A DNA stretch of 64,000 nucleotides from a virus. The notes below the pieces were generated by a model. It was not told where the DNA came from. It made no database searches and was given only the letters and a program-made list of their open reading frames with translations. Location of the stretch: the IMG/VR virus record IMGVR_UViG_3300049734_000491, positions 63,993 through 127,992 of that record. One strand, given 5' to 3'. Below, one piece after another: positions 992 to 64,000 of this stretch. Each line of letters starts with the position of its first letter. Positions within the stretch are counted from its first letter, which is position 1. The position numbers were made by a program, and so were the translations under genes.

Positions 992-3900
992 ATGCCTGAA
1001 ATCGTCGGTACCGCGTATGTGCGGATCAAGGCCATCACCGACGGGGTGGCCAAGGACATCCAGTCCGGTCTGGACAAAGGTGCTGCCGATGTCGACGGCT
1101 CGGGGGCCGGCAGGAGAGTCGGCACGACCTTCACCCAGGGTGTGGTCGACGGGATCGACAAGGGTGGGGACGACGTCGATGCCAAACTCGGGTCGCTCGG
1201 CAAGGACGCCGATGACTCAAGTGGTTTCACCTTCGCCCAGAGATGGGCATCCAAGTTCTACCTCGGGCTCGAGAAGGCGACTGACAAGAAGAAGGAAGAC
1301 GGCTTCTTCAAGGGTCTGACCAAGAACCTCGACAAGCTCAACGACAAGCTGAAGGTTCCGAGAATTGCCCTCGCCGGCCTCTTCGGCGCACCGGCGATCG
1401 GTGGAGCGGTCCAGGCACTCGGGGGCTACATCGTCTCGATCGTCGGCCAACTCGGATACCTGAGCACCGCTGCGATCGGTGCAGCAGCCGGCATCACGGG
1501 AGCCTTCGGTGCCGCGGCGTTGGCCATCGGTCCGCTCATGCTGGCCTTCAAGGCTCAGACACCGGAGTTGGACGTCTTCCAGGCCAAGGCCTCGGCGATC
1601 GGTGACATCTGGAAGGACGTGGGTGTCGCCACCCAGAAGTACCTGCTCCCTGCCCTGACCGAGGCCATGGAGTCGTCGCTCGAGTTGGTGCCGACCTTCG
1701 AGGTCTTCGGAGAGAGCATCGGCGCCGTCTCGGGGATGCTCGCCAAGTTCGCGACGGAGATGTTGACCTCGAACCAGGTCAGCGAGCTCCTGCACAACAT
1801 CCTCGATGCCGCGATCCCGATCTTCGAGTCGTTGGGTCTGGCAGCGGTCGCCTTCGCCAGAGGGATGCTCGAGCTGTTCGATGCGGTGATCCCCTTGGCC
1901 TCACGGTTCGCCGGCACGATCCAGCACATGGCAGGGCAGTTCGCCCTGTTCATGACGGCGCAGAACCGCTCCGGTCAGCTGACCCAGACGCTCACCGAGT
2001 GGTACGACCGAGCCGAGTTGGTGGGCCAGGCGTTCATCGACTTCGGCAAGATCATCTGGAACGTGTTCAAGGTCGGTGCTGACGCAGCCACGCCGTTCTT
2101 CGAGACGTTTGCTGCGTTCGCCCAGAAGTGGGCCGACTTCTCGAAGACCGAGGTCGGGCAGGCCAAGATCAAGGGGATCTTCGAGGAGGCGGTCCCCGTC
2201 GCCCAGTCGATCAATGCCCTGCTACGGGACATCATCGGCTGGATCGTCCAACCGATCGGTAAGGACAGCTCGGGGATCGTCCGGTTCTTCGACACCCTGC
2301 GGACGGTCATGCTGCCGTCGATCCAGAAGATCGCCGAACAACTCACCGGAAACTTGTCTGGGGCCCTGGACACCTTCGTGCAGTCCATCCTGGGATTCCT
2401 GGAGGCAACTGCCTCTTCCGGATCACTTGAGGCATTCTTCGGGGTTCTCGGTCAGGTCCTCAACGTCCTCACCGCCATCATGCAGATCCCGGGGCTGGAC
2501 ACCTTCGTCGGCCTCATGCTGACCCTCGGCGGGGCGTTCAAGGCCGTCCACTTCGCGGCGAAGCCGTTCATCGCGGTCATGACCGGCTTCAAGGATCTCC
2601 TCTCGAGCAGCATGGGCAAGGCAGCGTTCAAGCCGGTGATCGAGGGCTTCGAGGCGTTCATCACCAACCCGAAGGGCGGTCTGACGGCGGCCAAGGACGG
2701 ACTCAGCACGTTCATCGGGTCCATCGGCGGAGTTGGCCTCGCCATGGGCGGGATCACCATCGCGGCCGCGGTCGGGGCTGCGGCCTTCATGGCGTGGCAG
2801 ACCAACGTCAAACGAGTTGAACAAGAGTCGAAGACCTTCGCCCAGACCCTCCTGAACGGCGGTGACGCCCTCGAGGAGCTCGACAAGAGCTACCGGAACA
2901 TCCTCAACACCCGGCAGTCCTTCGACTCCTCGATGGAGAAGAGTGGGATCAGCATCGCCCGTGTCACCAACTTGGTCAACGAGAACACCGGTGACGTGGA
3001 CAAGTTCCGGGCGGCATGGCACCACGCCGGAGGTGGCTTCAAGCAGTTCCGTGAGGAGGGCGGCAAGGTCCCCGCCTCGATGCAGGGCATCATCGCCCAC
3101 CTCGAGAAGCTGGGCGAAGCCGGCACCATGAGCCAGGGCGAGATCAATGAGGTCATCGACGGGATGACCGATCTCGACAAGCAGGCCCAGGCAGCCCAAG
3201 CTGGGATCGCAGCCCAAGCAGATCAACTGCTCAAGGCGGGAGAGGCTGCTGGCCTCAGTGCGGATCAGATGAAGTACTTCGCCGAGGCGGCAGATACTTC
3301 TGGGACGCTCGAGGAACAGAACGAGGCGCTACAACAGGGTATCGCTCTGTATCCGGTGATCGCCGAAGAAGCCGGTGTGTCGATGCAGACCATCACCCAG
3401 GTTTCCCAAGAGGTCAACCGGCAGTTCCAGTCCATCATCGACAAGCTCGACAAGTTGGCTGGTCGACAACTCAACGCTGATCAGGCCACCAGGGACTTCG
3501 CCCAATCCCAGATCGAGTTGAGCGAGAAGTTCGCCACGACCGGCGGCGTGCTGGCCGGCCAAACCAAAGAGGCCCTCGCCAACCGGGACGCCCTTGATGG
3601 CATGATCGCATCGGGCAAGCGGGCGGCTGAGGCTCAAGCATCGGTTGACTCGACCGGACAGAGTTCGATCGCTACCTTGAAGGGTTTGCAGCAACAGATC
3701 ATCCTGCTCGGACAAGCTGGTGGGTTGAGCACCGACGAGGTCAACGCCCTGCTCGATTCGTTCGGACTCTTGGACGACCAGCAGATCCAGGCCCAGGTGA
3801 GCGTTGCCACCGACCAGGCCATCACCGACACGGAGGCTCTCAAGAAAGAGATCCGTGAGATGGACGGGGTGACCGAGCCGGTGCGGCTCCGTCTCAACGC

Positions 3901-4744
3901 CTTGGTCGACAGCGGTTCCGTTGACCAGGCCAGGGCCGCGATGGAGGCCTTCAAGAAGCAGCAGGCCGCCGAGGACATCCTGCTCGCGGTCCACGGTGAC
4001 ATCTCGAAGGCGGAGAACGACATCTTCGCCCTGTTGGGGTGGACCAAGGAGCAGGACGGCACCGTCAACATCGAGGGCAACAAGTACCCGTACGAGGAGG
4101 CGGTCAAGGCTGCCAAGGAGTACGCCGAGGGCACCACAGGCACCGTCACCATCACCGGTGATGACGGTGAGGCCCGGGTCGTGGCCCAAGGTACGCAGTC
4201 CTACATCAACAGCCTGACCGGAACGATCAACCTCACCGCCACGATCAGGAAGGAAGAGCTCCAGCGGATGACCCGCGAGGCGGCCCGCATCGTGGAGGAT
4301 GCTGCCGGACGGCAGATGACGGTCGGGCAGGCCGACAAGGGCACGTCCCTCATCACGATGGGGGTTGGCGGTGTGGTGATCCCCACTGCCGCAACGGCGT
4401 TCGGGGGTCCGACGTTCAGTCCCGCCGTGGTCGGTACATCACTTCGTTCCACGATCGCACAGGGACGAGCGATGGGGGCCCCGTCCGCCGGCGGCATGTC
4501 CGGTCTGCTGGCCAAGGGCGGGGCGATCGGACCGTTGGCGTCGGGCCACCACGGAGCTGGTGGTGACACCGGATCGGTGGAGGACTCGACGAACGTCGCC
4601 GTGCCGTCGGATGGCGGGGGAAGTGCGACCCCGACGGTCAACATCATCGTGAAGATCGGTGACCGTGACATCACCGACATCGTGGACGTGCAGATGAACG
4701 GGCGGATGGGTCAACTCGCCACAGCGATGAGGAGGGCCGGCTGA
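992..4744 (+). CDS. Tape measure protein
   Basis: 1250 aa, Ala/Gly-rich and helical; N-terminal VGTAYVRIKA motif; follows the chaperones. Confidence 0.92.
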   Translation: MPEIVGTAYVRIKAITDGVAKDIQSGLDKGAADVDGSGAGRRVGTTFTQGVVDGIDKGGDDVDAKLGSLGKDADDSSGFTFAQRWASKFYLGLEKATDKKKEDGFFKGLTKNLDKLNDKLKVPRIALAGLFGAPAIGGAVQALGGYIVSIVGQLGYLSTAAIGAAAGITGAFGAAALAIGPLMLAFKAQTPELDVFQAKASAIGDIWKDVGVATQKYLLPALTEAMESSLELVPTFEVFGESIGAVSGMLAKFATEMLTSNQVSELLHNILDAAIPIFESLGLAAVAFARGMLELFDAVIPLASRFAGTIQHMAGQFALFMTAQNRSGQLTQTLTEWYDRAELVGQAFIDFGKIIWNVFKVGADAATPFFETFAAFAQKWADFSKTEVGQAKIKGIFEEAVPVAQSINALLRDIIGWIVQPIGKDSSGIVRFFDTLRTVMLPSIQKIAEQLTGNLSGALDTFVQSILGFLEATASSGSLEAFFGVLGQVLNVLTAIMQIPGLDTFVGLMLTLGGAFKAVHFAAKPFIAVMTGFKDLLSSSMGKAAFKPVIEGFEAFITNPKGGLTAAKDGLSTFIGSIGGVGLAMGGITIAAAVGAAAFMAWQTNVKRVEQESKTFAQTLLNGGDALEELDKSYRNILNTRQSFDSSMEKSGISIARVTNLVNENTGDVDKFRAAWHHAGGGFKQFREEGGKVPASMQGIIAHLEKLGEAGTMSQGEINEVIDGMTDLDKQAQAAQAGIAAQADQLLKAGEAAGLSADQMKYFAEAADTSGTLEEQNEALQQGIALYPVIAEEAGVSMQTITQVSQEVNRQFQSIIDKLDKLAGRQLNADQATRDFAQSQIELSEKFATTGGVLAGQTKEALANRDALDGMIASGKRAAEAQASVDSTGQSSIATLKGLQQQIILLGQAGGLSTDEVNALLDSFGLLDDQQIQAQVSVATDQAITDTEALKKEIREMDGVTEPVRLRLNALVDSGSVDQARAAMEAFKKQQAAEDILLAVHGDISKAENDIFALLGWTKEQDGTVNIEGNKYPYEEAVKAAKEYAEGTTGTVTITGDDGEARVVAQGTQSYINSLTGTINLTATIRKEELQRMTREAARIVEDAAGRQMTVGQADKGTSLITMGVGGVVIPTAATAFGGPTFSPAVVGTSLRSTIAQGRAMGAPSAGGMSGLLAKGGAIGPLASGHHGAGGDTGSVEDSTNVAVPSDGGGSATPTVNIIVKIGDRDITDIVDVQMNGRMGQLATAMRRAG

Positions 4745-16434: not shown

Positions 16435-17736
16435 CTAATCGTACGGAAGCTCCAAGTGCTTCAGAATGTGGTACGCCAACCAACGTGCCACCGGTGAAGC
16501 GATCCCATTACCAATCATCTTGTATCGTGCACTATCTGGGATTTCGTTGCCACTTGAATCCCATCTAGTATGATCATCCGGCCAGCCCTGCAGTCGCTCA
16601 CACTCCCGAGGCGTGAGCCGTCGAACCCCGATCATGTCCCCAGCTACCTGTGGGACACCAGCTCCGTTGGCCACCCGTAGCGTCGGGGTGAACTTGTCCG
16701 ACACCTGCTCGTCGTGCAGGTTGTTCCCGTTGAACGAGACCACCGCCGGAGCGTGGCCGTCCGCCGGCAGCGTGGGCGAAGGATCCCCGGGCTTGGGATG
16801 GGATCGGTTGGTCTTGCTGGTGATCTGGGCGGTGTCGAACGGCATCGGCTCAGCCACGACCGTGTACATCCCCTTGTCGAGGCGGGTGGGGATCCCCTTG
16901 TAGTCGCGAGCTGTCAGCGTGTTGGCCATCTCTGGGATGAAGGTCATGCGCTCGGTGTCGGGTGACCAGCCACGTCGACCGGACCCCCCGCCCAGCGTGC
17001 CGGCCACGTCGGGGATCAAGTGGTTGGCTTGGGCGGAGTTGTCATCCGCGCCGCAACCTGCTCCAACGCCGTTTGCAGTGAGGGCGGAAGCGATCGTCCC
17101 CGACTTGCTGCCCTTCGCAGGATCCCGGCGCACCCTTTCGGTGACAGGAAGTATTTGGGGTCCACCGACTCTTCCAAGATCGAAGCAAGCGACGACGAAC
17201 ACTCGTCGGCGCCGTTGGGGGACTCCGCAGAAACGAGCATCCAGCACTCGCCACTGGATGTCCACCGCCCCGCATTCGGCCAAGAGGTCGAGGACTTGCG
17301 CGAAGTCGTCGCCCTGAGAGCTTGAGAGGGCGCCTCCGACGTTCTCCCAGACAGCATATGAGGGGATTCGTCCAAGGTCACGGTACTCCTTGATGATCCT
17401 GATCGCCTCGAGGAACAACCCCGAGCGAGTTCCTTCCTTCATGCCAGCTCGTTGACCCGAGATCGACAGATCTTGGCACGGGCTGCCGAAGCTGATGATG
17501 TCGCAGGGCGGCAGGTCCACTGCCTTCACGTCGGAGACATCGCCCCAGCGAGGTGTGTCCGGCCAGTGCCGAGCCAGGATCTCGTTGCACCACGAGTCCC
17601 ACTCGACCAGTCCCACGGTGTTGGCCCCGACTGCCTCGAAACCGAGATCCATGCCACCGACGCCGGCGAACAGGGAGAGGTGGTCGGCCCGAGGAGTGGC
17701 GATCCGTCGCTGTCGTCGGCGAGTTGGGGTAGCCAT
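16435..17736 (-). CDS. DNA (cytosine-5)-methyltransferase
   Basis: Motif I FAGVGG, motif IV GSPCQD, motif VI ENV, motif VIII QRRRRVF, LTPRECERLQG, motif X GN. Confidence 0.95.
   Translation of the reverse strand: MATPTRRRQRRIATPRADHLSLFAGVGGMDLGFEAVGANTVGLVEWDSWCNEILARHWPDTPRWGDVSDVKAVDLPPCDIISFGSPCQDLSISGQRAGMKEGTRSGLFLEAIRIIKEYRDLGRIPSYAVWENVGGALSSSQGDDFAQVLDLLAECGAVDIQWRVLDARFCGVPQRRRRVFVVACFDLGRVGGPQILPVTERVRRDPAKGSKSGTIASALTANGVGAGCGADDNSAQANHLIPDVAGTLGGGSGRRGWSPDTERMTFIPEMANTLTARDYKGIPTRLDKGMYTVVAEPMPFDTAQITSKTNRSHPKPGDPSPTLPADGHAPAVVSFNGNNLHDEQVSDKFTPTLRVANGAGVPQVAGDMIGVRRLTPRECERLQGWPDDHTRWDSSGNEIPDSARYKMIGNGIASPVARWLAYHILKHLELPYD
17016..17381 (-). CDS. Overprinted alternative-frame methyltransferase subunit (M.EcoHK31I beta-like)
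   Basis: SSLASILE..KYFLSPKGCAGILRRAASRGRSLPPSL, nested in the methyltransferase on the same strand in another frame. Confidence 0.65.
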   Translation of the reverse strand: MTLDESPHMLSGRTSEAPSQALRATTSRKSSTSWPNAGRWTSSGECWMLVSAESPNGADECSSSLASILEESVDPKYFLSPKGCAGILRRAASRGRSLPPSLQTALEQVAARMTTPPKPTT

Positions 17737-17763
17737 GGTCGGAGCTTACTCGGTCGACCAGGC

Positions 17764-18048
17764 TCAGCCGGGAATGGTCAACTCATTTCGGCGCTTCCGT
17801 CGTCGGCTCGTCTGGCGGTTCTTGGCCTCATCGGTGGTGGGCCCCTCCATCATCACGACGCGGACGAGCCACTGGCGGCGGCACCGAGTGTTCACGCACT
17901 GCACCACCGTCACGGCCGTGTCGGTGGAGGGTTCCTGACCCGTCTTGTGGGTGTCCCCATCACGGTCGGACTGGAAGGTGTTGCTGTTCACGTGGTCGAC
18001 CTGTCCACCACAGCGGAGGCAGGTCACATCGAGTTGGTATCGGCTCAC
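17764..18048 (-). CDS. Zinc-ribbon protein
   Basis: CLRC...CVNTRC; TAGTAT box 6 nt before the GTG start. Confidence 0.55.
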   Translation of the reverse strand: MSRYQLDVTCLRCGGQVDHVNSNTFQSDRDGDTHKTGQEPSTDTAVTVVQCVNTRCRRQWLVRVVMMEGPTTDEAKNRQTSRRRKRRNELTIPG

Positions 18049-18079: not shown

Positions 18080-18358
18080 CGCCACCGCCGGCCGTGATTC
18101 CTGTGGCTGTCGGTGGGCTTTTGTCCGACGGTGGCGTGAGATGCCCCGCACCGCCAACCGCTCCTCGAAAGGCTGTCGAGGTAACTTCAGGTTGACGGTG
18201 CGGGAACCCGATGATCGCCACTGGTCTTGGCTGTCGATGCGACATCGGATCATTGGGTCGAGGGAGGGGCGGCTGTCGGATGTCCAATGGACCCTAGAAG
18301 GTGTCACCGCTGGCCGGAGTGCTTACAGCTGTCGCGAACTCTATGGGCCAGCGGTGAC
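18080..18358 (-). ncRNA. TIGR-like stem-loop guide array 1 (five units)
   Basis: Five hairpins whose loops read, on the - strand, NNN-N9-CGACAG-CYN-N9-CG with different spacers (one second spacer is 10 nt); directly downstream of the Tas-like gene. Confidence 0.85.
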
Positions 18359-18363
18359 GAGTA

Positions 18364-19218
18364 TTACAGACCCTCCTCTGACTTCCAGCGGGGCGGGAGG
18401 CCCGAAGCGACACGCCACAGGTCGATGCCGATCTGCTTGGCGGTGAACCGGAGGGCGGCGTTGTGCTTGTGGGCCTGCGTCCACTCCTCGCGGGCCTCGT
18501 ACTTCGCCTTGGCCTGATCGTAGGCATCACGGTAGGGAGACCGACGACGGGGCGCCCGTGTTACGGCTGTCGCGGCATTCGCGGCCGCGTCGTCGGTCAG
18601 GATGACGGGATCATCGGTACCACCACCGGTCGCGCACAGCCCAGCTCCCGTAACCACATCGGACTCGGTGGTGGTACCGGCCGAGCCGATCTGCTTGACG
18701 CAGGACTCGGCGAGCAGGTGGAGCAGCATCTTCGCCACGGGGTTGCCCAGAGCGAGGGTGTCTGCCTGGTCCATCCCCTTGCGGCGCTTGGCCGCGGGGT
18801 CGCCGTGGCCGCAGTAGGCCAGCAGCTGGCGGGGCGTGCGGTCGAACGGCTCGAGCGCCACGAGGTGGCGATCCTTGCCGCAGCGGAACGAGCACTCGTG
18901 CCCCTCGGGGGACTCGTCCATCCAGATCCACGGCTCGGCGTGGATGGGATCACCGATGGCACCGAGCAGGCGAGCCACGGTGTGCTCACCCAGTCCGACG
19001 GTGTCTCGGGCCCACGCGTAGAGCTCGGGGGCGGCGACACGGAAGGTCCGCTTCATCGCCAGCGCCAGCATCTTCTCGGTGGCCTGCAGGTTGGTCACGT
19101 GCTGGGTCATGGCCTCGGGGGCCGCTGGGATGTGGCGGAGTCTGTGCTCCGTGGCGATCCGCAGCTTCTGGGCATCGTGATAGCTCTCGGCGATCACCTT
19201 CAATTGGTCGTAGCTCAT
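18364..19218 (-). CDS. TasA-like Nop-domain RNA-guided DNA-binding protein 1 (IS110 C-terminal-like, no RuvC)
   Basis: Coiled coil, GLGEHTVARLLGAIG, QLLAYCG, GNPVAKMLL, SPYRDAYD..K, HKHNAALRFTAK; no DEDD domain; adjacent array. Confidence 0.8.
   Translation of the reverse strand: MSYDQLKVIAESYHDAQKLRIATEHRLRHIPAAPEAMTQHVTNLQATEKMLALAMKRTFRVAAPELYAWARDTVGLGEHTVARLLGAIGDPIHAEPWIWMDESPEGHECSFRCGKDRHLVALEPFDRTPRQLLAYCGHGDPAAKRRKGMDQADTLALGNPVAKMLLHLLAESCVKQIGSAGTTTESDVVTGAGLCATGGGTDDPVILTDDAAANAATAVTRAPRRRSPYRDAYDQAKAKYEAREEWTQAHKHNAALRFTAKQIGIDLWRVASGLPPRWKSEEGL
18540..18679 (-). ncRNA. Two guide hairpins embedded in frame in Tas-like gene 1
   Basis: CCG-ATGTGGTTA-CGGGAG-CTG-GGCTGTGCG-CG (18615-18679) and CCG-CGAATGCCG-CGACAG-CCG-TAACACGGG-CG (18540-18597), each closed by a long stem. 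Confidence 0.8.
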
Positions 19219-19252
19219 TGTCTTGTCCTTTGGTCGTTGTCGTTGTCGTTGG

Positions 19253-19747
19253 TCAGTTGTCGAGGTCAGCGAGACAGGTCACGCCGGCCGCGATGATGGT
19301 CTGTGCAGCCTCCTCGTGGGCGAGGCGGGTGTCACGGATGGAGTTCTCTTGGGTGAGCAGCCAGCCCGCACGGGCGAGATGGTCGTCGGCGGTTGCCTTC
19401 AACCATTCAACCCATCGTCCATCGGGCAGGATGAACGACTGCTCCATGAGCAGCCGACGGGCGGTAGTGGGGTCGGCTCCGGCCGCGATGTCGGTCCGGA
19501 CTCGGATCTCGGTCCGACGAACCTCGGCCCGCTGAATGCGGGACACCTCGTAGCGCACGAGCTGGAGCAGCCAGCGCCGTCGCTCGGACTCGGTGAGCGC
19601 AGCGATGGCTGCCTCGGCGATGTCCTGCTGATCTTCGAGACCCGAAGCGATCGCAGCCTTGATGTGGGCGTAGAGCGACGTGGGTGTCGTGACAGCCGAC
19701 GGGAGGGTAGTGGTTGTCGGTGTTGTTGGTGGTGCTTGGAACGTCAT
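19253..19747 (-). CDS. Tas-associated partner protein 1 (function unknown)
   Basis: DGRWVEWLKATADDHLARAGW...IAAGVTCLADL; paralog of 60863-61561. Confidence 0.7.
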   Translation of the reverse strand: MTFQAPPTTPTTTTLPSAVTTPTSLYAHIKAAIASGLEDQQDIAEAAIAALTESERRRWLLQLVRYEVSRIQRAEVRRTEIRVRTDIAAGADPTTARRLLMEQSFILPDGRWVEWLKATADDHLARAGWLLTQENSIRDTRLAHEEAAQTIIAAGVTCLADLDN

Positions 19748-19818
19748 GGCGGTGACTATAACACACGGTCCTTCGCTGCTGACAAATTACCTGTGGTATC
19801 CACAGGAAGGAGCTCGCT

Positions 19819-42927: not shown

Positions 42928-43553
42928 TCTACTACGCCAACCCGTCCACCCCCAAGATCAGAGCGCAGATGGATCGAGGGGCCCTCGGCTGCATCCTCAC
43001 ACCGGGCCAGGGGAACGCCCCAGACTACGACCGCTGGGACGTGATCGCCGACAACGGGTGCTTCGCGAACAACTGGGACGCCAAGAACTGGTGGAAGTGG
43101 TTGCTGAGCCGGTCACGCAACATGCGGTTCGCCGTGTGCCCCGACGTGTACGACCCCAGCGGGGCTCCGTGCCACGTCCCCACCGTGCGGCGGTGGAAGA
43201 AGTACGCCCCCCGGATGAGAGACGAGGGGTTCGTCCCCGCCTTCGTCTGCCAGAAAGGTGCCACCGCCTACAACGTGCCCGATGACGCCGAGGTGCTGTT
43301 CCTCGGGGGGTCGACCGAGTTCAAGCTCGGTGGTCAGGCCGAGCAGATCGCCATCGCCGCCCAGTACCGAGGGCAGTGGGTCCACATGGGACGGGTCAAC
43401 TCCAAGAAGCGGATGTCCCTCGCCCACGAGTGGGGTGTCTCCTCTGTCGACGGCACCTACCTCAAGTGGGGGCCCGACGTGAACCTCCCGAAGCTGCTCC
43501 GTTGGCTGGGGGAGATCCCGACTACCGAAAGTACTCTGCCGGATCGTGGATGA
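42924..43553 (+). CDS. TGT/DpdA-like base-exchange transglycosylase (compact)
   Basis: DNGCF, PDV, Q.G, LGG, HMGRVNS and DGT motifs; GTGA-coupled to the VUT gene. Confidence 0.65.
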   Translation: MIYYANPSTPKIRAQMDRGALGCILTPGQGNAPDYDRWDVIADNGCFANNWDAKNWWKWLLSRSRNMRFAVCPDVYDPSGAPCHVPTVRRWKKYAPRMRDEGFVPAFVCQKGATAYNVPDDAEVLFLGGSTEFKLGGQAEQIAIAAQYRGQWVHMGRVNSKKRMSLAHEWGVSSVDGTYLKWGPDVNLPKLLRWLGEIPTTESTLPDRG

Positions 43554-46095
43554 CCGGGGCTGTTTGTCGGCCTCTCCACGAACCGAGGTTCATGCTCCTC
43601 GTTTCCTGGCGGGCTCGGCTGTTCACCCCGTCCAGGAGTCGGGTGTCATCCAGCGAGGCGATGGTCATGCGGGAGTACGGACGCAACGGCCGGTCGTCGA
43701 TGAGCACCGCGGTCACGGCGTGGACCAAGGCGTCGAGCCGGTCGGGGGACCATTTGGAGCTCGGCTCCCACTCGGTGAGTTGGCCGGTGAGCTCGGGGAA
43801 GTCCTCGGTGTGGAACACCCGGCCACGTCGGTAGGCCAGCACGACCGGCTCGGCTCGAGCGGCCTTGGACTTCACCGAGGGAATCAGGGCGACAGGGATG
43901 GCGGGATCAGCTGACTGGATCACCGTGCGGACCATCTCGCCGCCCTGATTCTTCTCGGCCACCACGACGGTGAGGTGGTCTTCGTTGCTCTCGTGGTACA
44001 GGTCGGCCACGGCCTTGGCCCACTGCTCGGGCGGACCCTGCACGGAGCGATCTGCGGTGACCCACGCCCTTCGCTGGGAGATGTGCTCGTCCCGTTGCCG
44101 AGTGGTCTGCACCCGGACGATCCCGGTCTCGTCACCACCGGAGCTGGCTGAAGGGTCCACCCCGATCACGGTCACGAACTCGGGCTTGTTCGGACCGAAG
44201 ATGTCGTGGGCCATCTTGTCGGGGATGTTCCACCCCGGCGGCAACGGAGCGATCACGAAGTCCCGGTCCTTCCAGAGCGAGCCTTCGACCACCAGCACGA
44301 GGCGGCCGTAGAGCTCCTGCTCCTCCAGCGCCGTGCCGGCGTAGAGGTCGATCAGTGTCTGGAGGTACTCCGAGGACAAGTTGGCTCGGTTGTCGTAGGT
44401 CGAACCGGTCACGATCAGCACGTCGCTCTCGGGTTGCTGGGCTCGGTCGACCAGCTCCCGGATCAGAGGGATCCGCTTGGGTGTGGTGGTCACGAAGATC
44501 TGGGGGTGCTCGCCGAGACGGGTCGAGATCGTGATCTGCTCCCAGGCGTTCACGTCGGAACGGGACAGCTTGAACGCTGCGAGCTCGTCGGCCCAGGTGA
44601 AGTGCGACTGGGGGCCCCGCAACTGGTCCGGCGATTCCGACGAGAAGGTGATGGCCACCGTCGAGTTCGGCCAGATGACCTTGCGTATGGACGGCACGTA
44701 TTGGGGCATGAAATCTGGTGGTGACAACGCCAGGATCCCGGAGTTGTGTGTCGGAACCAGCGTCCGACCGACGAGGAACAGATGATCATCGTTGTCAACG
44801 GCGATGCATCGGACTGGGACCGACTCGGTGGGCTGCACATCGACGATGTACCGAAAGCCGTGTTCGGATGATCGTGGTGGCACAAGCCGTTCAACCTTGC
44901 GCCGGATCGTGAAGACCGGAAGACCGGTGCAGAAGCCGACACGATGAAGTGGGAGGTGTCCGATCTTCGATGGTTGGACACGCCAACGGCTCCTGAGACC
45001 GAGACTGGCGACCAGTTCAACCACAGCTTGAGCCAAGTGTTCGTTCGTGTTGGAGAACTCCACTCGTCCCGTTGCGTCGATCGACCCATCGGTGTCGAGC
45101 AGCCCACGTAGAAGATCCAGACGTTGCTGGTAAGAACTTCGGAAGTAGGCATCTGGGACGTGTTTGTTCGCGAGCAGTCCTGTGTTCTTGAGCAATCGAG
45201 ACAGTCCGAGAATCCCATAGGTACGTGCTCTTCCTTGCTGACCGTGGTCGGACCACTCCGTAAGAGCGAACCCATCAGCTGCGACCCCTGCAAGAACTTC
45301 GGGGTCCATCGTGGTGATGCCAGCGTGGTACGAGTGCCCATCTCCCAGCCACGCGCCCAACGTGTAGGGCGGGATCGGCAGGTCACACGGCTTGAGGTCG
45401 AGTGGTTGGGTGTTCGCAATGGCGTGATTCACCTGTCCGTTCGGCATCCGGAGGGTGTGGGTGATGTCCTCAGTCCGAACGACTTCAGGTTGGTGCTTGC
45501 TTGACAACGAGTTGAATCGACGGGCTTGGTGGGTCCACGTCAGCCACTTGTGGTTAGCATCAGCAATGATCTGTTCTCCGTCACTAAACACGATGCTGAA
45601 ACAGGGTCGATTGACATGAATCTCGGACACCCACGACACGACGACTGGGTATCCATCAGCACCCAGAACCTGATCACCAGCACGAAGATCGCCCATCGTT
45701 GCCCAACCCGTAGGCGTTGCTACTGGTGTGTCCAATGCCAGAGCTTCACCTTGGACCATGACATCGCGCACATCAGCGACGGTCCGCCCGACGAGGTGGA
45801 TCCTGGCCCCCGGGTTCTCCTTGGCCTTCTGGTTCACCCAGTTGGAGCCGGTCCGGGTCTTGCCGCCGCCGCGACCGGACAGCATCACGACCGTGCTCTC
45901 GCTGGCGTTCAGGGCGGAGAGCTGGTCGTTCGGTCTGAGCCAGAAGGCAGCGCTGTGCTCGAGGTCGGGCTCCTCCATCGCGAGTTCAGCCAGGATCTCG
46001 GCTCTCTGGTCGGGGTTCCTGACCAGGGCCACCCGCTCGGCCATCGACAGGTTGCCCTTCCCGCCGGGTCCTGAGTCCGAAAAGATGAGCGGCAT
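43522..46095 (-). CDS. terL: Terminase large subunit containing an intein
   Basis: GRGGGKT, LRGPQ..WADE, TTTP, GVDP, EKNQGG, SPDRLDA. Confidence 0.92.
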   Translation of the reverse strand: MPLIFSDSGPGGKGNLSMAERVALVRNPDQRAEILAELAMEEPDLEHSAAFWLRPNDQLSALNASESTVVMLSGRGGGKTRTGSNWVNQKAKENPGARIHLVGRTVADVRDVMVQGEALALDTPVATPTGWATMGDLRAGDQVLGADGYPVVVSWVSEIHVNRPCFSIVFSDGEQIIADANHKWLTWTHQARRFNSLSSKHQPEVVRTEDITHTLRMPNGQVNHAIANTQPLDLKPCDLPIPPYTLGAWLGDGHSYHAGITTMDPEVLAGVAADGFALTEWSDHGQQGRARTYGILGLSRLLKNTGLLANKHVPDAYFRSSYQQRLDLLRGLLDTDGSIDATGRVEFSNTNEHLAQAVVELVASLGLRSRWRVQPSKIGHLPLHRVGFCTGLPVFTIRRKVERLVPPRSSEHGFRYIVDVQPTESVPVRCIAVDNDDHLFLVGRTLVPTHNSGILALSPPDFMPQYVPSIRKVIWPNSTVAITFSSESPDQLRGPQSHFTWADELAAFKLSRSDVNAWEQITISTRLGEHPQIFVTTTPKRIPLIRELVDRAQQPESDVLIVTGSTYDNRANLSSEYLQTLIDLYAGTALEEQELYGRLVLVVEGSLWKDRDFVIAPLPPGWNIPDKMAHDIFGPNKPEFVTVIGVDPSASSGGDETGIVRVQTTRQRDEHISQRRAWVTADRSVQGPPEQWAKAVADLYHESNEDHLTVVVAEKNQGGEMVRTVIQSADPAIPVALIPSVKSKAARAEPVVLAYRRGRVFHTEDFPELTGQLTEWEPSSKWSPDRLDALVHAVTAVLIDDRPLRPYSRMTIASLDDTRLLDGVNSRARQETRSMNLGSWRGRQTAPVIHDPAEYFR
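44743..45744 (-). mobile_element. Class 3 intein (334 aa) with LAGLIDADG endonuclease
   Basis: Ala1 (ALALDT), HKW, VRCI, THN|S, LRGLLDTDG; exteins rejoin as VQGE|SGIL. Confidence 0.88.
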
Positions 46096-58463: not shown

Positions 58464-59603
58464 TCAGGCCGGTGCTGGAACCGACGTCTCGGCGTACCGC
58501 TGGTGGCGCTGGCCCGAGATGTAGTTCGGTGAGGTCGAGATCATGGCGATGGCCACGTCCGGTCCGTCGTCGGTGACGTCGCACGGTGTGCGGAAATCGC
58601 ACCAGCCGCAGGCATCGCTGGGGGACGGGAAGGCGTACCGCTCGGCCAGGTGCACCGTGGAGGGCTGGGCGGTCAGGGGCGTGACGTCGGCGGACGGGGG
58701 CGTGACCGGATCGAGCTGCAACGTGGCGTCGATGAGCTCGGCCACCACCGAGAAGATCTGCCGTCGGCGGCTGCGGCGCAGCGCCTGGGAGTGCGTGATC
58801 GGCAGGTCCCTCACCTCGGTGGGGGCATTTCTGGAGCGGGGTCGCTGGATGATCCGGTAGTTGAACTCGGCTGGGGGAGAGTTGGTTGAGATTGCCCGGG
58901 CCCGTGCCTCTTGGAGCGGAGCCGGTAGATCCTGAGCCATCTCCAGAAGCATGTCGTAGAAATACGACTGATTGGATCGCTGGAACCCCTCGTCCACCTG
59001 GAAGGTCCGGCCCGTCGTCTTCCAGTCCGTCATCCGGATCTGGGCGTAGCGGGGATCACTGGGATCGGGCGAGGTGTGCTGCTGAACCAGGTCGACCTTG
59101 CCCTGCAACCGGATCGCTGTGAAGCCCTGCTGCCGGAGTTGGGACGTCCGCTGGGCCACGGCGTGGGGGGAGTCGAGTTGTTCCCAGACGGGATCATCGA
59201 ACTCGAGGGTGTACCGCAACTTGGCTTCGGTGCAGACAGGATCCCACTGGGCGTCGGGTTGGTTCTCCTCCAGCCAGGTCACGTAGTCAGCCACCATCCG
59301 CCGACCGAGCAGCACATCCTCGTAGAGCTTGTCGCACACCCAGGGTGGCTGGCCGGTGCTCGAGGCCCGGGCGATGTCACGCTGGGCAAGCTCCTCGAAA
59401 AGCTGTCTGGGGTCTCTCGGGCCGGCTGGGTCGTAGTGACCCTCGAGCGCCTCGTGCACCCGGACACCGGCTGGGGCTGCTCCGACCGGGAACCGTGCAT
59501 CGCTGAACCCGAGCACGTAGTTGAACCAGAACTGTCTCCTGCACTGCAGGAAGCTGGCGATATCGGAATGGCTGATGTCAAAAGAACGGCCTGTACGAGT
59601 CAT
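58464..59603 (-). CDS. PD-(D/E)XK exonuclease (Cas4/RecB-like, Cys cluster)
   Basis: SHS..FLQCRRQ, G.RVHEALE, GKVDLV, DWKT, CGWCDFRTPC. Confidence 0.85.
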   Translation of the reverse strand: MTRTGRSFDISHSDIASFLQCRRQFWFNYVLGFSDARFPVGAAPAGVRVHEALEGHYDPAGPRDPRQLFEELAQRDIARASSTGQPPWVCDKLYEDVLLGRRMVADYVTWLEENQPDAQWDPVCTEAKLRYTLEFDDPVWEQLDSPHAVAQRTSQLRQQGFTAIRLQGKVDLVQQHTSPDPSDPRYAQIRMTDWKTTGRTFQVDEGFQRSNQSYFYDMLLEMAQDLPAPLQEARARAISTNSPPAEFNYRIIQRPRSRNAPTEVRDLPITHSQALRRSRRRQIFSVVAELIDATLQLDPVTPPSADVTPLTAQPSTVHLAERYAFPSPSDACGWCDFRTPCDVTDDGPDVAIAMISTSPNYISGQRHQRYAETSVPAPA

Positions 59604-59835
59604 GATCCGTACCGTTTCCTTGGTCCCAGCGGGAACGTGGATGGGTCTGGATCAGACTCGCACAGGCCTGTGACAAAATCGAGGATGGTCTACCTCTTGT
59701 TGGAGGGAGTGGACGATCCCCGTGGGGTGGTGTCTGCCGCGACCTTGGCGGTGCCGGTGCCGGCTCCGGTGCTGGTACCGATGCGGTAGACGCCCCGATC
59801 ACTCGCCCAGAGTACCTGTAATCAGTTGAGGAATA

Positions 59836-60011
59836 GTCCCCAGCGGCGGTCATCAAGGGGGTATCGCATCTTCTAAGGCCGCTGGGGACCGAGGATGCCA
59901 TCGACGGCGACTCTGGTTTGGGCATCGCTACTTCTACGACCGTCGATGGCGAAGGTGTCCCCGACGGCGGGGTATCGGTGGGTATCGCATGTGCTCCGAC
60001 CGTCGGGGACA
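59836..60011 (-). ncRNA. TIGR-like stem-loop guide array 2 (three units; a degenerate fourth at 59730-59793)
   Basis: Hairpins with loops NNN-N9-CGATRC-CCM-N9-CG; spacer pairs GAGCACATG/CCGATACCC, TAGAAGTAG/AACCAGAGT, TAGAAGATG/CTTGATGAC. Confidence 0.85.
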
Positions 60012-60017
60012 GACCAG

Positions 60018-60866
60018 TCACGCAAGCGTCGTCAGGTAGAGGTTATAGAGCCGACGAAGGAACTCCTTCGAGGTCCGCCGGATGGCGGCGTTGTCAGCGT
60101 GTCCCTTCGTCCAGCCGCGCTCTGAGTACATGAGCTTGGAGAGGTCGAGGTAGCAGCGGAGACAGAGGTCGTCCCGGACAGCGTCGCTACTGTGGGTGTC
60201 GGTCATACCATGACCGCCCGGGACGACGAAGGTGCCATCGACGGCGGGGCATCGGTGGGTGTCGTATGTGCTCTGGCCGTCAGGGAGATCGAGGACGCAG
60301 CCCGGAGTGTGCTCACCGGCCTTCCTGATCTGTGTCGTGTTCAAGTAGAGCAATGACTTGATGCGGACGTTGCCGGACGCCATCGCCTCGGACTGTGTCA
60401 TGCCCTTGGTGCGGCGGCGGGTCGGGTCGCCCAGAGCGCAGTAGGACCAGAGCTGGGAAACGGATCGGATCTGCGGCTCACCCTGCACCAACACCCGTTC
60501 GTCCGTGCTCCCCGCCTCGGATCCGGGAATCCACCACTTCGGGATGGCGACCACCGGATGTCCGATCGCTCCGAGGATCCGTGCGACGGTGTGCTCGCCG
60601 ACACCGCGCTGTGCCGCGACCCACTCCCGCACCGGTTCGGGAACGACATCACGGTAGGTCCTCTTCAGGGCCTTGCTGGCGGCCTTCTCGATCTCAGTCA
60701 ACAGATGGATCTGATCGTCGAAGAGACCAGCAGGAGCGTGTCTCAAACGATTACCGGTAGCGATCCTCATCAGCTGCATATCAGTGAACTGATCGGCGGC
60801 GAGACGCAGGAGCCGGTACTGATCATCAAGGGCGTCGATGGCATCGACATCCTTGAGGTCGATCAC
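60018..60866 (-). CDS. TasA-like Nop-domain protein 2
   Basis: GVGEHTVARILGAIG, SQLWSYCALGDP, GNVRIKSLL, GHADNAAIRRTSKEFL; paralog of 18364-19218. Confidence 0.8.
   Translation of the reverse strand: MIDLKDVDAIDALDDQYRLLRLAADQFTDMQLMRIATGNRLRHAPAGLFDDQIHLLTEIEKAASKALKRTYRDVVPEPVREWVAAQRGVGEHTVARILGAIGHPVVAIPKWWIPGSEAGSTDERVLVQGEPQIRSVSQLWSYCALGDPTRRRTKGMTQSEAMASGNVRIKSLLYLNTTQIRKAGEHTPGCVLDLPDGQSTYDTHRCPAVDGTFVVPGGHGMTDTHSSDAVRDDLCLRCYLDLSKLMYSERGWTKGHADNAAIRRTSKEFLRRLYNLYLTTLA
60168..60281 (-). ncRNA. Two guide hairpins embedded in frame in Tas-like gene 2
   Basis: CCA-GAGCACATA-CGACAC-CCA-CCGATGCCC-CG and TCA-TGGTATGAC-CGACAC-CCA-CAGTAGCGA-CG, each within a stem. Confidence 0.8.
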
Positions 60867-61561
60867 GCCAGCTCCTTCGGCGGGACAACCGTCAGGAGTG
60901 ATGCATCGGTCGACGGTGGCTCGGGACGCTTGGCCTCGGGCAATGCAGCGAGGTTGGGCACGCCGGCCTCAATGAGAGCATCGATCGCGTTCTGGTGCCG
61001 CTGGCAGTCGGTCTGGAGCGGTTCAATGTACCGCCGGTTGATCCAAGCGATCCGACCAGCGTGCTGTTCGATGGTCGCCTCAAGCCAGTCGACGTAGTCG
61101 GTGCCGTCGAAGAACTTGTACCCACCGAGTTGGTCCTTGGCGAGACGCGACCACGTCCGATGAACCGGTTCGGTCTCAGCCACCTCGACCTCCTCGGTGG
61201 GGATGTGTTCCGATTCACCGTTCTCTGCGGACTCACCCTCCTCAGTGGCAGGTGGGGGAGTGGTAACGGGGACGGTGGGGGTGTACGGATCGCCCACAGC
61301 ATTCTCGGCATCACGGGTCAGAGCCCGCTGCCACGTCTTGGCCTCCTTGATGAGCGAGGCGAGGACATACTTCTCGTACTCCGCTGTGGTCATCGCCTTG
61401 ATCGCCCGCTCAGCCAGCTTCTCCGGATCGGTGGTGTGGGGCTCGTCCCGATGTGGAACCGCCGAGGCGAAGATCTCAACCAGTGGTCGGATCTTCGGAG
61501 TGGATGACGACGAGGTCGTCGAAGTGGGCGTGGTCATCATCGTCACGTCGACGAGTTCCAT
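60863..61561 (-). CDS. Tas-associated partner protein 2
   Basis: DGTDYVDWLEATIEQHAGRIAW...IEAGVPNLAAL; GTGA-coupled to Tas-like gene 2. Confidence 0.7.
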   Translation of the reverse strand: MELVDVTMMTTPTSTTSSSSTPKIRPLVEIFASAVPHRDEPHTTDPEKLAERAIKAMTTAEYEKYVLASLIKEAKTWQRALTRDAENAVGDPYTPTVPVTTPPPATEEGESAENGESEHIPTEEVEVAETEPVHRTWSRLAKDQLGGYKFFDGTDYVDWLEATIEQHAGRIAWINRRYIEPLQTDCQRHQNAIDALIEAGVPNLAALPEAKRPEPPSTDASLLTVVPPKELA

Positions 61562-61686
61562 GAGATCTCCCTGTTGGTCTTGGTCTTGGTCTTGGTCTTG
61601 ATCATCGGCAGTTGGCCACATGAAGCAGGGAGACCAGTAGGTCATCTCTCACACCGACTGCCGCCTCGGGTTCAAGTAGGCGTTGG

Positions 61687-62842: not shown

Positions 62843-63020
62843 GGTGGGCCCTGTCGTCAGTGTAAATGATGGTTCGGAACACGCTGGGCCGCTTTCCTTT
62901 CGGCTGTCGAGAAGCCATTGGACCCAGCGTGTTCCTCACCACATACAGGCCGAGGGAGGGCGGGGATCCTTCGGGGCGGGGGAGATTTCCTGAGAGTCCG
63001 CTACCCATCGGAGTGGTGGA

Positions 63021-63476: not shown

Positions 63477-64000
63477 GACAGCTCCCCGAGTCGGGCCAAC
63501 TCGGCATCCCAGTCGATGTCGTCGGTGCCCCCGAAGCGGAGCCCGATGAGGTCGATCAGAGCCTTGAGCTGGTTGACCGTGTCCCGCAGGAGCTCCATCT
63601 CGTCGTCGGAGAGGTCGACGTCGTGGGCCTCCTTCAGGGCATCGGTGAGGTTGCGCCGAGCCGTCATGAACCGACCCTCGAGCGACAGGTACACGAGGGT
63701 GTGGCCGGCCTTGCGGCTCTCCTCCACCCGCTTCGCGCGGGCCTTGTCCTTGGCCCGAGCAGAGGCGGCCTTGGGGATCTCCTCCTCCACGGTGGTGCCC
63801 TTGGCCTCGGCCCGTTCGCGGGCGTGGTGGACCACGTCAGCGATCTCGTTCCGATGGGCTCGTGTCACGTTGCCCGCCGTCGTGCCGGTCGCAGCAGCGA
63901 TGGCCTCGGCCGCTGCGGCCTTCTCGGTGGTGAGACCGGCCAGCTGAATCTGGTCGTTGAGGGAGTGGGTGATCGGGGCACCCCGATCACTCGCCTCCTT
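63473..64000 (-). CDS. Hypothetical helical protein (5' end outside the window)
   Basis: Frame open from 64000 to the stop at 63473; ATGA overlap with the HTH gene. Confidence 0.55.
   Translation of the reverse strand, partial: KEASDRGAPITHSLNDQIQLAGLTTEKAAAAEAIAAATGTTAGNVTRAHRNEIADVVHHARERAEAKGTTVEEEIPKAASARAKDKARAKRVEESRKAGHTLVYLSLEGRFMTARRNLTDALKEAHDVDLSDDEMELLRDTVNQLKALIDLIGLRFGGTDDIDWDAELARLGELS

Follow-up and report, generated by a model that had tools for sequence, protein, structure and literature searches.

The question raised by the DNA described here is why a virus should carry a gene for a nuclease-less protein of the Nop/IS110 kind, directly followed by a row of hairpins that have unrelated stems and one common loop. 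The locus in question (locus 1) occupies positions 18080 to 19747 of a stretch of 64,000 nucleotides, here called the window, which corresponds to positions 63,993 to 127,992 of the IMG/VR virus record IMGVR_UViG_3300049734_000491 and forms the second half of a phage genome of 127,992 bases that is 95% complete as judged by CheckV. An earlier note, made from the letters of the window alone, had described the locus as TIGR-Tas-like and as consisting of a partner gene, the nuclease-less protein and an array of stem-loops with two spacers each. The answer reached in the present analysis, with a probability of about 0.88, is that locus 1 is a stem-loop TIGR-TasA system; its protein is referred to below as TasA-1.

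Hairpin units of locus 1 and their common grammar

Read from the minus strand, locus 1 consists of a partner open reading frame (19253..19747, 164 amino acid residues), the open reading frame of tasA-1 (18364..19218, 284 residues) and five hairpins (18358-18080). Unit 1 of this array (18303..18358) has a 13-bp stem and a 30-nt loop. The stem of unit 2 (18255..18294) has 5 bp only, and its 3' arm overlaps by 4 nt the 5' arm of unit 3 (18206..18258), the stem of which comprises 11 positions with one A-C and the spacer B of which exceeds that of the other units by one base. The stem of unit 4 (18144..18205) has 15-16 bp, including G-U pairs possible on this strand only, and unit 5 (18080..18136) has a 12-bp stem with one G-U pair. 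Two additional units lie on the same strand inside tasA-1, in a DNA segment encoding a variable insert of the protein: intragenic unit 1 (18615..18679) combines a 14-bp stem and 9+9 spacers with a degenerate core, CGGGAGC, and keeps the reading frame, and in intragenic unit 2 (18539..18598) the stem is 11 bp long and the core is exactly CGACAGC. The positions that the earlier note had assigned to both open reading frames (19747..19253 and 19218..18364) and to the hairpins all hold; its single loop grammar for five hairpins with unrelated stems was confirmed by script and by an alignment of 27 units, reading C-N-N9-CG-ACAG-C-Y-N-N9-CG, and the ten 9-nt spacers it had listed are exactly those read by the script, including the extra base in spacer B of unit 3.

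The whole genome contains about 27 such units, namely the locus-1 array, the two units inside tasA-1, one solitary unit, about 15 units in a remote array and those of a second, paralogous locus. All 27 can be aligned on the loop without gaps, in the order stem, C-N, N9, C-G, ACAG, C-Y-N, N9, C-G and stem. The C-G after each spacer and the C-N before it are invariant over the 27 units and are named box D-like and box C-like, respectively, according to their position and by analogy with published systems. Between the two spacers lies a loop of 9 nt (CGACAGC plus two bases) in all five array units. The stem sequences are unrelated from unit to unit, and pairing is conserved all the same: in register, 180 of the 216 stem positions compared over the 27 units pair (83%), as against 62-110 of 216 (29-51%) when the partner strand is slid by 1-4 columns.

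The hairpins are also far from what base composition would give. The heptamer CGACAGC occurs five times in the roughly 280 bases of the array, each time in the middle of the loop of a hairpin, and 31 times on both strands of the window, compared with 17.9 +/- 4.4 in shuffled sequences, none of 100 of which reached 31. Folding of the 306-nt array yielded -136.3 kcal/mol versus -106.1 +/- 5.3 kcal/mol for dinucleotide shuffles (z = -5.7; 0 of 100 as good). When the grammar was applied strictly, requiring the core, a CG at a distance of 11 nt downstream of it and at least 5 stem pairs in a fixed register of +/-1, four occurrences with CGACAGC were found in the window versus 0.10 on average in 30 dinucleotide shuffles (maximum 2), and 11 versus 0.30 in the whole genome; units 3 and 5 and an intragenic unit fall 1-3 nt outside this strict register. 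With respect to the strand, the 258 stem positions considered, as written on the tasA strand, comprise 243 Watson-Crick pairs, 13 G-U pairs and two A-C pairs. Since an A-C would be a G-U pair on the other strand, the guide RNA is most likely read in the sense of tasA.

The same grammar is present in related loci. Among 144 fetched loci that encode a homologue of TasA-1, to which metagenome scans contributed relatives of at most 42% identity only, 35 carry at least three hairpin units that have a common 8-nt loop core, mostly CGAYRCCC, and the same 9+9 spacing. This recurrence beside homologues bears on the possibility that the hairpins are not guides at all and represent structural or regulatory elements, such as terminators, RNA-stability hairpins or protein-binding palindromes. 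GC-rich phage genomes are indeed rich in hairpins (the window contains 160 on both strands with a stem of at least 9 pairs and a loop of 26-42 nt), and in the array no Rfam family was matched at the gathering score, a transfer RNA scan finding nothing either. Such an origin nevertheless appears very improbable, since the fixed 9+9 spacing around an invariant loop, with stems and 9-mers both varying, is unlike terminators or palindromic sites, the hairpins have no U tract and the grammar is found again next to homologous genes.

TasA-1 and its place among known RNA-guided proteins

No Pfam family was detected in TasA-1 at E <= 1, neither PF01548 nor PF02371 being found. A search of a large protein collection returned 130 homologues, nearly all of them without a name, the best non-self match being 53% identical. 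A family profile built from 45 of the 130 homologues and compared with solved structures matched TIGR-TasR (9MTY; E = 2e-24) and TasH (E = 8.3e-17) and nothing else below E = 0.02. The match covers only the coiled-coil and C-terminal parts and starts at residue 115 of TasR, past the RuvC domain. The AlphaFold model of TasA-1 (predicted local distance difference test score, pLDDT, 87.2; predicted template-modelling score 0.81) has a coiled coil (helices 3-28 and 35-62), a helical C-terminal domain of the Nop type and a disordered variable insert at about residues 180-225. The insert (pLDDT 46-64) coincides with a gap-rich variable region of the family alignment, and its DNA is that of the two intragenic hairpin units. 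The last helix ends at residue 271 and is followed by a tail of 13 residues without tyrosine or histidine. In a Foldseek comparison with the model, the ten best folds in PDB were TasR or TasH chains (TasR with a template-modelling score of 0.56), followed by ISCro4, IS621 and Nop5.

These profile and fold comparisons agree with the description of the protein as Nop/IS110-like in the earlier note, the best matches being TasR, TasH, IS621/ISCro4 and Nop5. Its statement that no RuvC-like DEDD domain is present likewise stood, TasA-1 having no Pfam family and PF01548 being absent from the six reading frames of the whole genome (HNH and TasR-type RuvC domains were not searched genome-wide). The name TIGR-Tas-like was borne out by the TasR/TasH matches of profile and fold, the lack of a nuclease domain and the published anatomy of stem-loop arrays. 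Because TasA-1 has a Nop-type module, matches TasR only past its RuvC domain and contains no nuclease domain, it is a TasA, i.e. a nuclease-less Tas protein with a predicted Nop-type guide-binding module.

The kinship with IS110 recombinases could also be taken to mean that locus 1 is a decayed IS110-type element, its protein being a recombinase that has lost the catalytic domains and its hairpins the remnants of a bridge RNA. TasA-1 belongs in PHROGs to phrog_4285, which is annotated 'transposase' (E = 2.6e-25), IS621 and ISCro4 are among the fold matches, and many relatives in cluster-A-type mycobacteriophages are annotated 'transposase' as well, the others being called 'hypothetical protein' or 'DNA binding protein'. 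However, no DEDD domain exists in the protein or in the genome, and TasR and TasH are far better fold matches (Foldseek E about 1e-6) than IS621 and ISCro4 (5e-3 to 1.5e-2), with Nop5 (1NT2) at 0.59. Moreover, the 130 homologues are intact and have conserved columns, and a bridge RNA is a single unit with two loops, as opposed to the 5-15 tandem units found in this phage. A decayed IS110 element is therefore the least probable of the explanations considered, with hardly any chance of being correct.

The closest known systems are the stem-loop TIGR-TasA systems, represented by PlTasA (from a Peromyscus leucopus gut contig), BlTasA (Bifidobacterium longum) and MbTasA. Passages of Faure et al. 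2025 (PMC12045711) describe stem-loop arrays with TasA that have two spacers of 8-12 nt and variable palindromic stems, and passages of Xu et al. 2026 (bioRxiv 10.64898/2026.09.09.750476) report 2,559 stem-loop arrays with loops mostly of 9 nt, guides inside the tas coding sequence in disordered segments, the absence of the Tyr/His processing loop from stem-loop clades, a CUU motif that is located at the base of the stem and marks the processing site, and the role of TasA as a guide-dependent transcriptional repressor. Structures of PlTasA with a stem-loop guide obtained by cryo-electron microscopy are presented in passages of Guan et al. 2026 (bioRxiv 10.64898/2026.08.11.744272). The phage locus shares with these systems a coiled-coil protein of Nop fold that has no nuclease, hairpins in tandem whose palindromic stems vary, two spacers in box C/D-like frames, a 9-nt loop, further units within the part of the tas coding sequence that specifies a disordered insert, and a short C-terminal tail without the Tyr/His dyad. 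It differs from them in that the fold alignments with solved Tas proteins have only 15-18% identity, that box D is C-G and not U-G, and that the CUU motif at the stem base is mostly absent; in locus 1 the linker that joins units 1 and 2 is alone in having CUU, the other linkers having UUC or CUC, whereas the motif is commoner in the second locus. Furthermore, the phage possesses two paralogous loci, remote and solitary units, and a conserved partner gene.

Comparison with the dual-repeat systems of TasR (TaTasR, PDB 9MTY) and TasH (SpTasH, PDB 9W04 and others) demonstrated the Nop domain and the coiled coil to be common to both sides, as are the two spacers of the guide, the pairing of the C of box C with the G of box D and the loop of 9 nt. 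In contrast to TasR and TasH, TasA-1 has neither a RuvC or HNH domain nor the Y/H processing loop, and the phage units have unrelated stems where dual-repeat arrays have conserved edge repeats; only the stretch of the remote array at genome positions 3742-3881 comes near the dual-repeat form. The bridge-RNA recombinases of the IS110 type (IS621, ISCro4) resemble the phage system in the fold of the RNA-binding domain and in the logic of a two-part guide. The phage, however, has no DEDD RuvC-like domain, no serine-recombinase part was seen in its protein, and multi-unit arrays take the place of one bridge RNA. A more distant resemblance is that to the box C/D small ribonucleoproteins (Nop5-fibrillarin-L7Ae), which have a distantly similar Nop-type fold (1NT2) and two guide segments framed by short boxes; unlike these, the phage lacks fibrillarin (PF01269 is absent from six frames of the 128-kb genome, control genomes being positive), and the published Tas relatives target DNA, not RNA. 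CRISPR-Cas systems, with near-identical direct repeats of at least 20 nt, differ from the phage units, between which 7-9 nt are constant and which match no Rfam family; no search was aimed at cas genes.

Further guide units, the partner gene and neighbouring genes

The second locus (locus 2), positioned on the minus strand of the window at 59835-61645, encodes a paralogue of the partner (260 residues) and TasA-2 (282 residues), which is 35% identical to TasA-1 over 275 residues, and carries, besides three units downstream, two intragenic ones (60282..60239 and 60227..60168). Its loop core is CGAYRCC, the type common among relatives, and nearly all of the 35 array-bearing related loci have cores of this locus-2 type. 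Each spacer of one intragenic unit of locus 2 differs at a single base from the corresponding spacer of downstream unit 1. The solitary unit (62876..62935, minus strand) is intergenic, at a distance of 44 kb from tasA-1, and has the exact locus-1 grammar, with a 15-bp stem and the core CGACAGC. The remote array of about 15 units of the locus-1 type is found outside the window, on the plus strand at genome positions 3207-3979 (L003), 650 nt after a gene for a DUF3987 protein. It ends at a GC-rich hairpin that is terminator-like by eye; the consensus scan listed no terminator there. Four of its units, at 3742-3881, have a period of 39-40 nt and a common self-complementary edge, and from their sequence look intermediate between stem-loop and dual-repeat arrays.

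Two other repeats were observed around the remote array. Just upstream, at L003 2580-3030, a stretch of low G+C content contains repeated inverted repeats of GTTCTTGTAC, 8-9 nt and GTACAAGAAC, plus related half-sites, and may represent an origin, a site of packaging or an operator region. Just past the end hairpin, at L003 4060-4095, a short direct repeat of GCGTCG + CGACAGC is present in two copies that are not in a hairpin.

In the AlphaFold model of the locus-1 partner (pLDDT 90.8), a small beta hairpin separates a long helix at residues 53-88 from a second one at 120-154, the two helices forming a long helical hairpin. Pfam detected no family in any of 12 members of the partner family, the partner profile matched nothing in PDB below E = 0.02 and Foldseek nothing in PDB at E <= 0.001. 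PHROG phrog_2342, of unassigned function, matches the partner at E = 0.0017, the matches in BFVD are uncharacterised proteins only, among them proteins of the Mycobacterium phages Rich and Omega, no usable match was obtained from the ESM Atlas, and the large protein search gave eight matches, none of them named. The partners of locus 1 and locus 2 have a common C-terminal module (33% identity over 72 residues, E = 1e-5). By tblastn, a partner gene adjoins tasA in 29 of the 144 related loci, mainly in those with the closest TasA; on the sequence evidence the partner is co-duplicated with tasA in this phage. No conserved partner gene is mentioned in the main-text passages, supplements aside, of PMC12045711, bioRxiv 10.64898/2026.09.09.750476 and bioRxiv 10.64898/2026.08.11.744272. 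It is conceivable, although rather unlikely, that the partner is an undescribed subunit or helper of actinophage TIGR-TasA, acting for instance in guide maturation or in coupling the bound complex to an effect, and that the two loci with their different cores (CGACAGC versus CGAYRCC), the first of them together with the remote array of about 15 units, represent two separate RNA-guided channels in one virus.

Genes for DNA-modifying or DNA-cleaving enzymes are positioned close to both arrays. On the minus strand after the locus-1 array (16435-18048) there follow an open reading frame for a Cys-rich protein of 94 residues and then a gene for a C-5 cytosine DNA methylase (PF00145, E = 6e-54). After the locus-2 array, also on the minus strand, lies a gene for a nuclease of the PD-(D/E)XK family (58464-59603; PDDEXK_1, E = 4.6e-21).

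A complex of TasA-1 might accordingly bring an additional activity to its site, supplied by the partner, by the C-5 methylase or by the PD-(D/E)XK nuclease. The co-duplication of the partner and its adjoining position in related loci speak for this, as do the methylase gene, which is the second gene downstream of locus 1 and has the same orientation, the nuclease gene after locus 2, and the methylase homologue 2.5 kb downstream in L009, the sole related locus with CGACAGC loops. Over the 144 loci, however, a methylase homologue is found near tasA in three and a PD-(D/E)XK nuclease in none; neither enzyme therefore belongs to a conserved module, and RNA-guided methylation or cleavage through them was rejected. 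The partner, for its part, has no recognisable enzymatic fold, and the published TasA proteins repress on their own, according to passages of the reports describing them. On balance an additional activity of this kind is improbable, and the reading of locus 1 as a stem-loop TIGR-TasA system acting through TasA itself is preferred.

As regards the virus itself, the G+C content of the genome is 61-65%. No nucleotide relative was found among 50,697 cultured phage records or among the five IMG/VR records carrying tasA homologues, and no close relative of its DNA polymerase in viral_contigs. Its DNA is present in 12 soil metagenome runs from 12 studies, and in soil DNA runs from other samples the array is without any difference. 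Ten of the 12 bacterial-genome loci with TasA-1 homologues are actinobacterial (Nocardioides, Streptomyces, Mycobacterium, Tsukamurella and others), and the only relatives of TasA-1 in cultured phages are those of 79 mycobacteriophages, with about 30% identity. The virus is an uncultured soil phage, probably with an actinobacterium as its host. Its large terminase (Terminase_6N and 6C; 43522-46095, minus strand; 857 residues) contains a LAGLIDADG_3 domain at residues 326-380, which suggests an intein or a homing-endonuclease insertion.

Proposed mode of action and its significance

The partner gene, tasA-1 and the array would form one operon of the minus strand, the transcription of which probably starts at an extended -10 promoter. 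A promoter-like stretch was recognized by eye before the partner gene (19755..19785, minus strand), composed of TTGTCA, 19 nt and TGtTATAGT, the latter being the extended -10. A consensus scan for sigma-70 promoters listed no site at locus 1, because the spacer between the -35 and -10 elements is too long for the scan. As the extended -10 ends 7 nt before the ATG of the partner gene, the mRNA may be leaderless, beginning with that gene. Further upstream, the scan placed a terminator-like hairpin at 19806..19790 (minus strand), belonging to the gene preceding the partner gene. The gap of 34 nt between the partner gene and tasA-1 contains an AAGGA ribosome-binding site 8 nt before the ATG of tasA-1.

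By analogy with the processing of published relatives, the transcript would then be cut between the hairpins into tigRNAs of a single hairpin each, having two 9-nt spacers between the box C-like C-N and the box D-like C-G and the 9-nt loop CGACAGCYN between the spacers. A dimer of TasA joined through its coiled coil would hold one guide and open an 18-bp site in DNA, spacer A pairing with one DNA strand and spacer B with the other, so that TasA-1 would be a programmable DNA-binding protein, the function that the earlier note had proposed and that experiments in bioRxiv 10.64898/2026.09.09.750476 demonstrate for other TasA proteins. Since TasA has no nuclease, it would remain bound to its site, in the host or in a rival element, where it would block transcription or some other transaction of the DNA.

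Read-length contigs from two soil RNA libraries match positions 17807-17961, 18307-18457 and 18554-18704 of the window without difference, and two of the three cover guide units; the contigs identical to 18307-18457 and 18554-18704, which are 151 nt long and include array unit 1 and the intragenic units, come from one soil metatranscriptome library. They give a weak hint of RNA from locus 1, too little to call expression, and the stretches without such cover are no evidence of silence.

The arrangement expected for a target, derived in this analysis, is spacer A followed by the reverse complement of spacer B, owing to the C-5 cleavage rule and the 8-nt 3' overhang given in passages of PMC12045711. 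The earlier note had proposed a search for 18-mers of this and other arrangements. Run with the 27 guides on the phage's own genome of 128 kb, this search revealed no site above five control arrangements: with up to three mismatches the expected arrangement had one site, within the array itself, versus 2-5 sites per control arrangement, and with four mismatches it had 31 sites versus 27-47 in the controls. Likewise, 87 distinct guides from 20 related loci displayed no excess of matches to this genome, the expected arrangement having one match with up to two mismatches and the control arrangements 0-2 each, four in all over the five.

Several points weigh against the assignment of locus 1 to the stem-loop TIGR-TasA systems. 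Apart from the lack of an excess in the own-genome target search, they include the rarity of the CGACAGC core, which among the 144 related loci occurs in only two units of one locus (L009), the homologues of 53-45% identity (P0002-P0009) being outside this set. By the criterion of at least three units with a common core, 109 of the 144 loci are without an array, many of these loci being short. The RNA-library contigs are of read length and without strand information, and their source may be DNA in the library. Finally, the transcription, processing and loading of the guides, the binding of DNA, the targets and the role of the partner are steps that we infer by analogy with published systems.

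Since systems of this kind, including guides within the gene and repression by TasA, are already published (2025-2026) and in use as a tool, locus 1 does not change any concept. Its value is that of a natural example within an almost complete genome (CheckV 95%), most known TIGR loci being located on short contigs. The genome illustrates how guides may be spread in a single phage, i.e. beside the gene, within the gene, as a solitary unit and in a distant array; it encodes two Tas proteins that have diverged from each other and each have a loop variant of their own, and it exhibits a partner gene without known fold that accompanies tasA in this clade. Three points that passages of the TIGR-Tas papers name as open, namely the natural targets, the factor responsible for processing and the growth of arrays, would become approachable in such a genome when its host has been identified.

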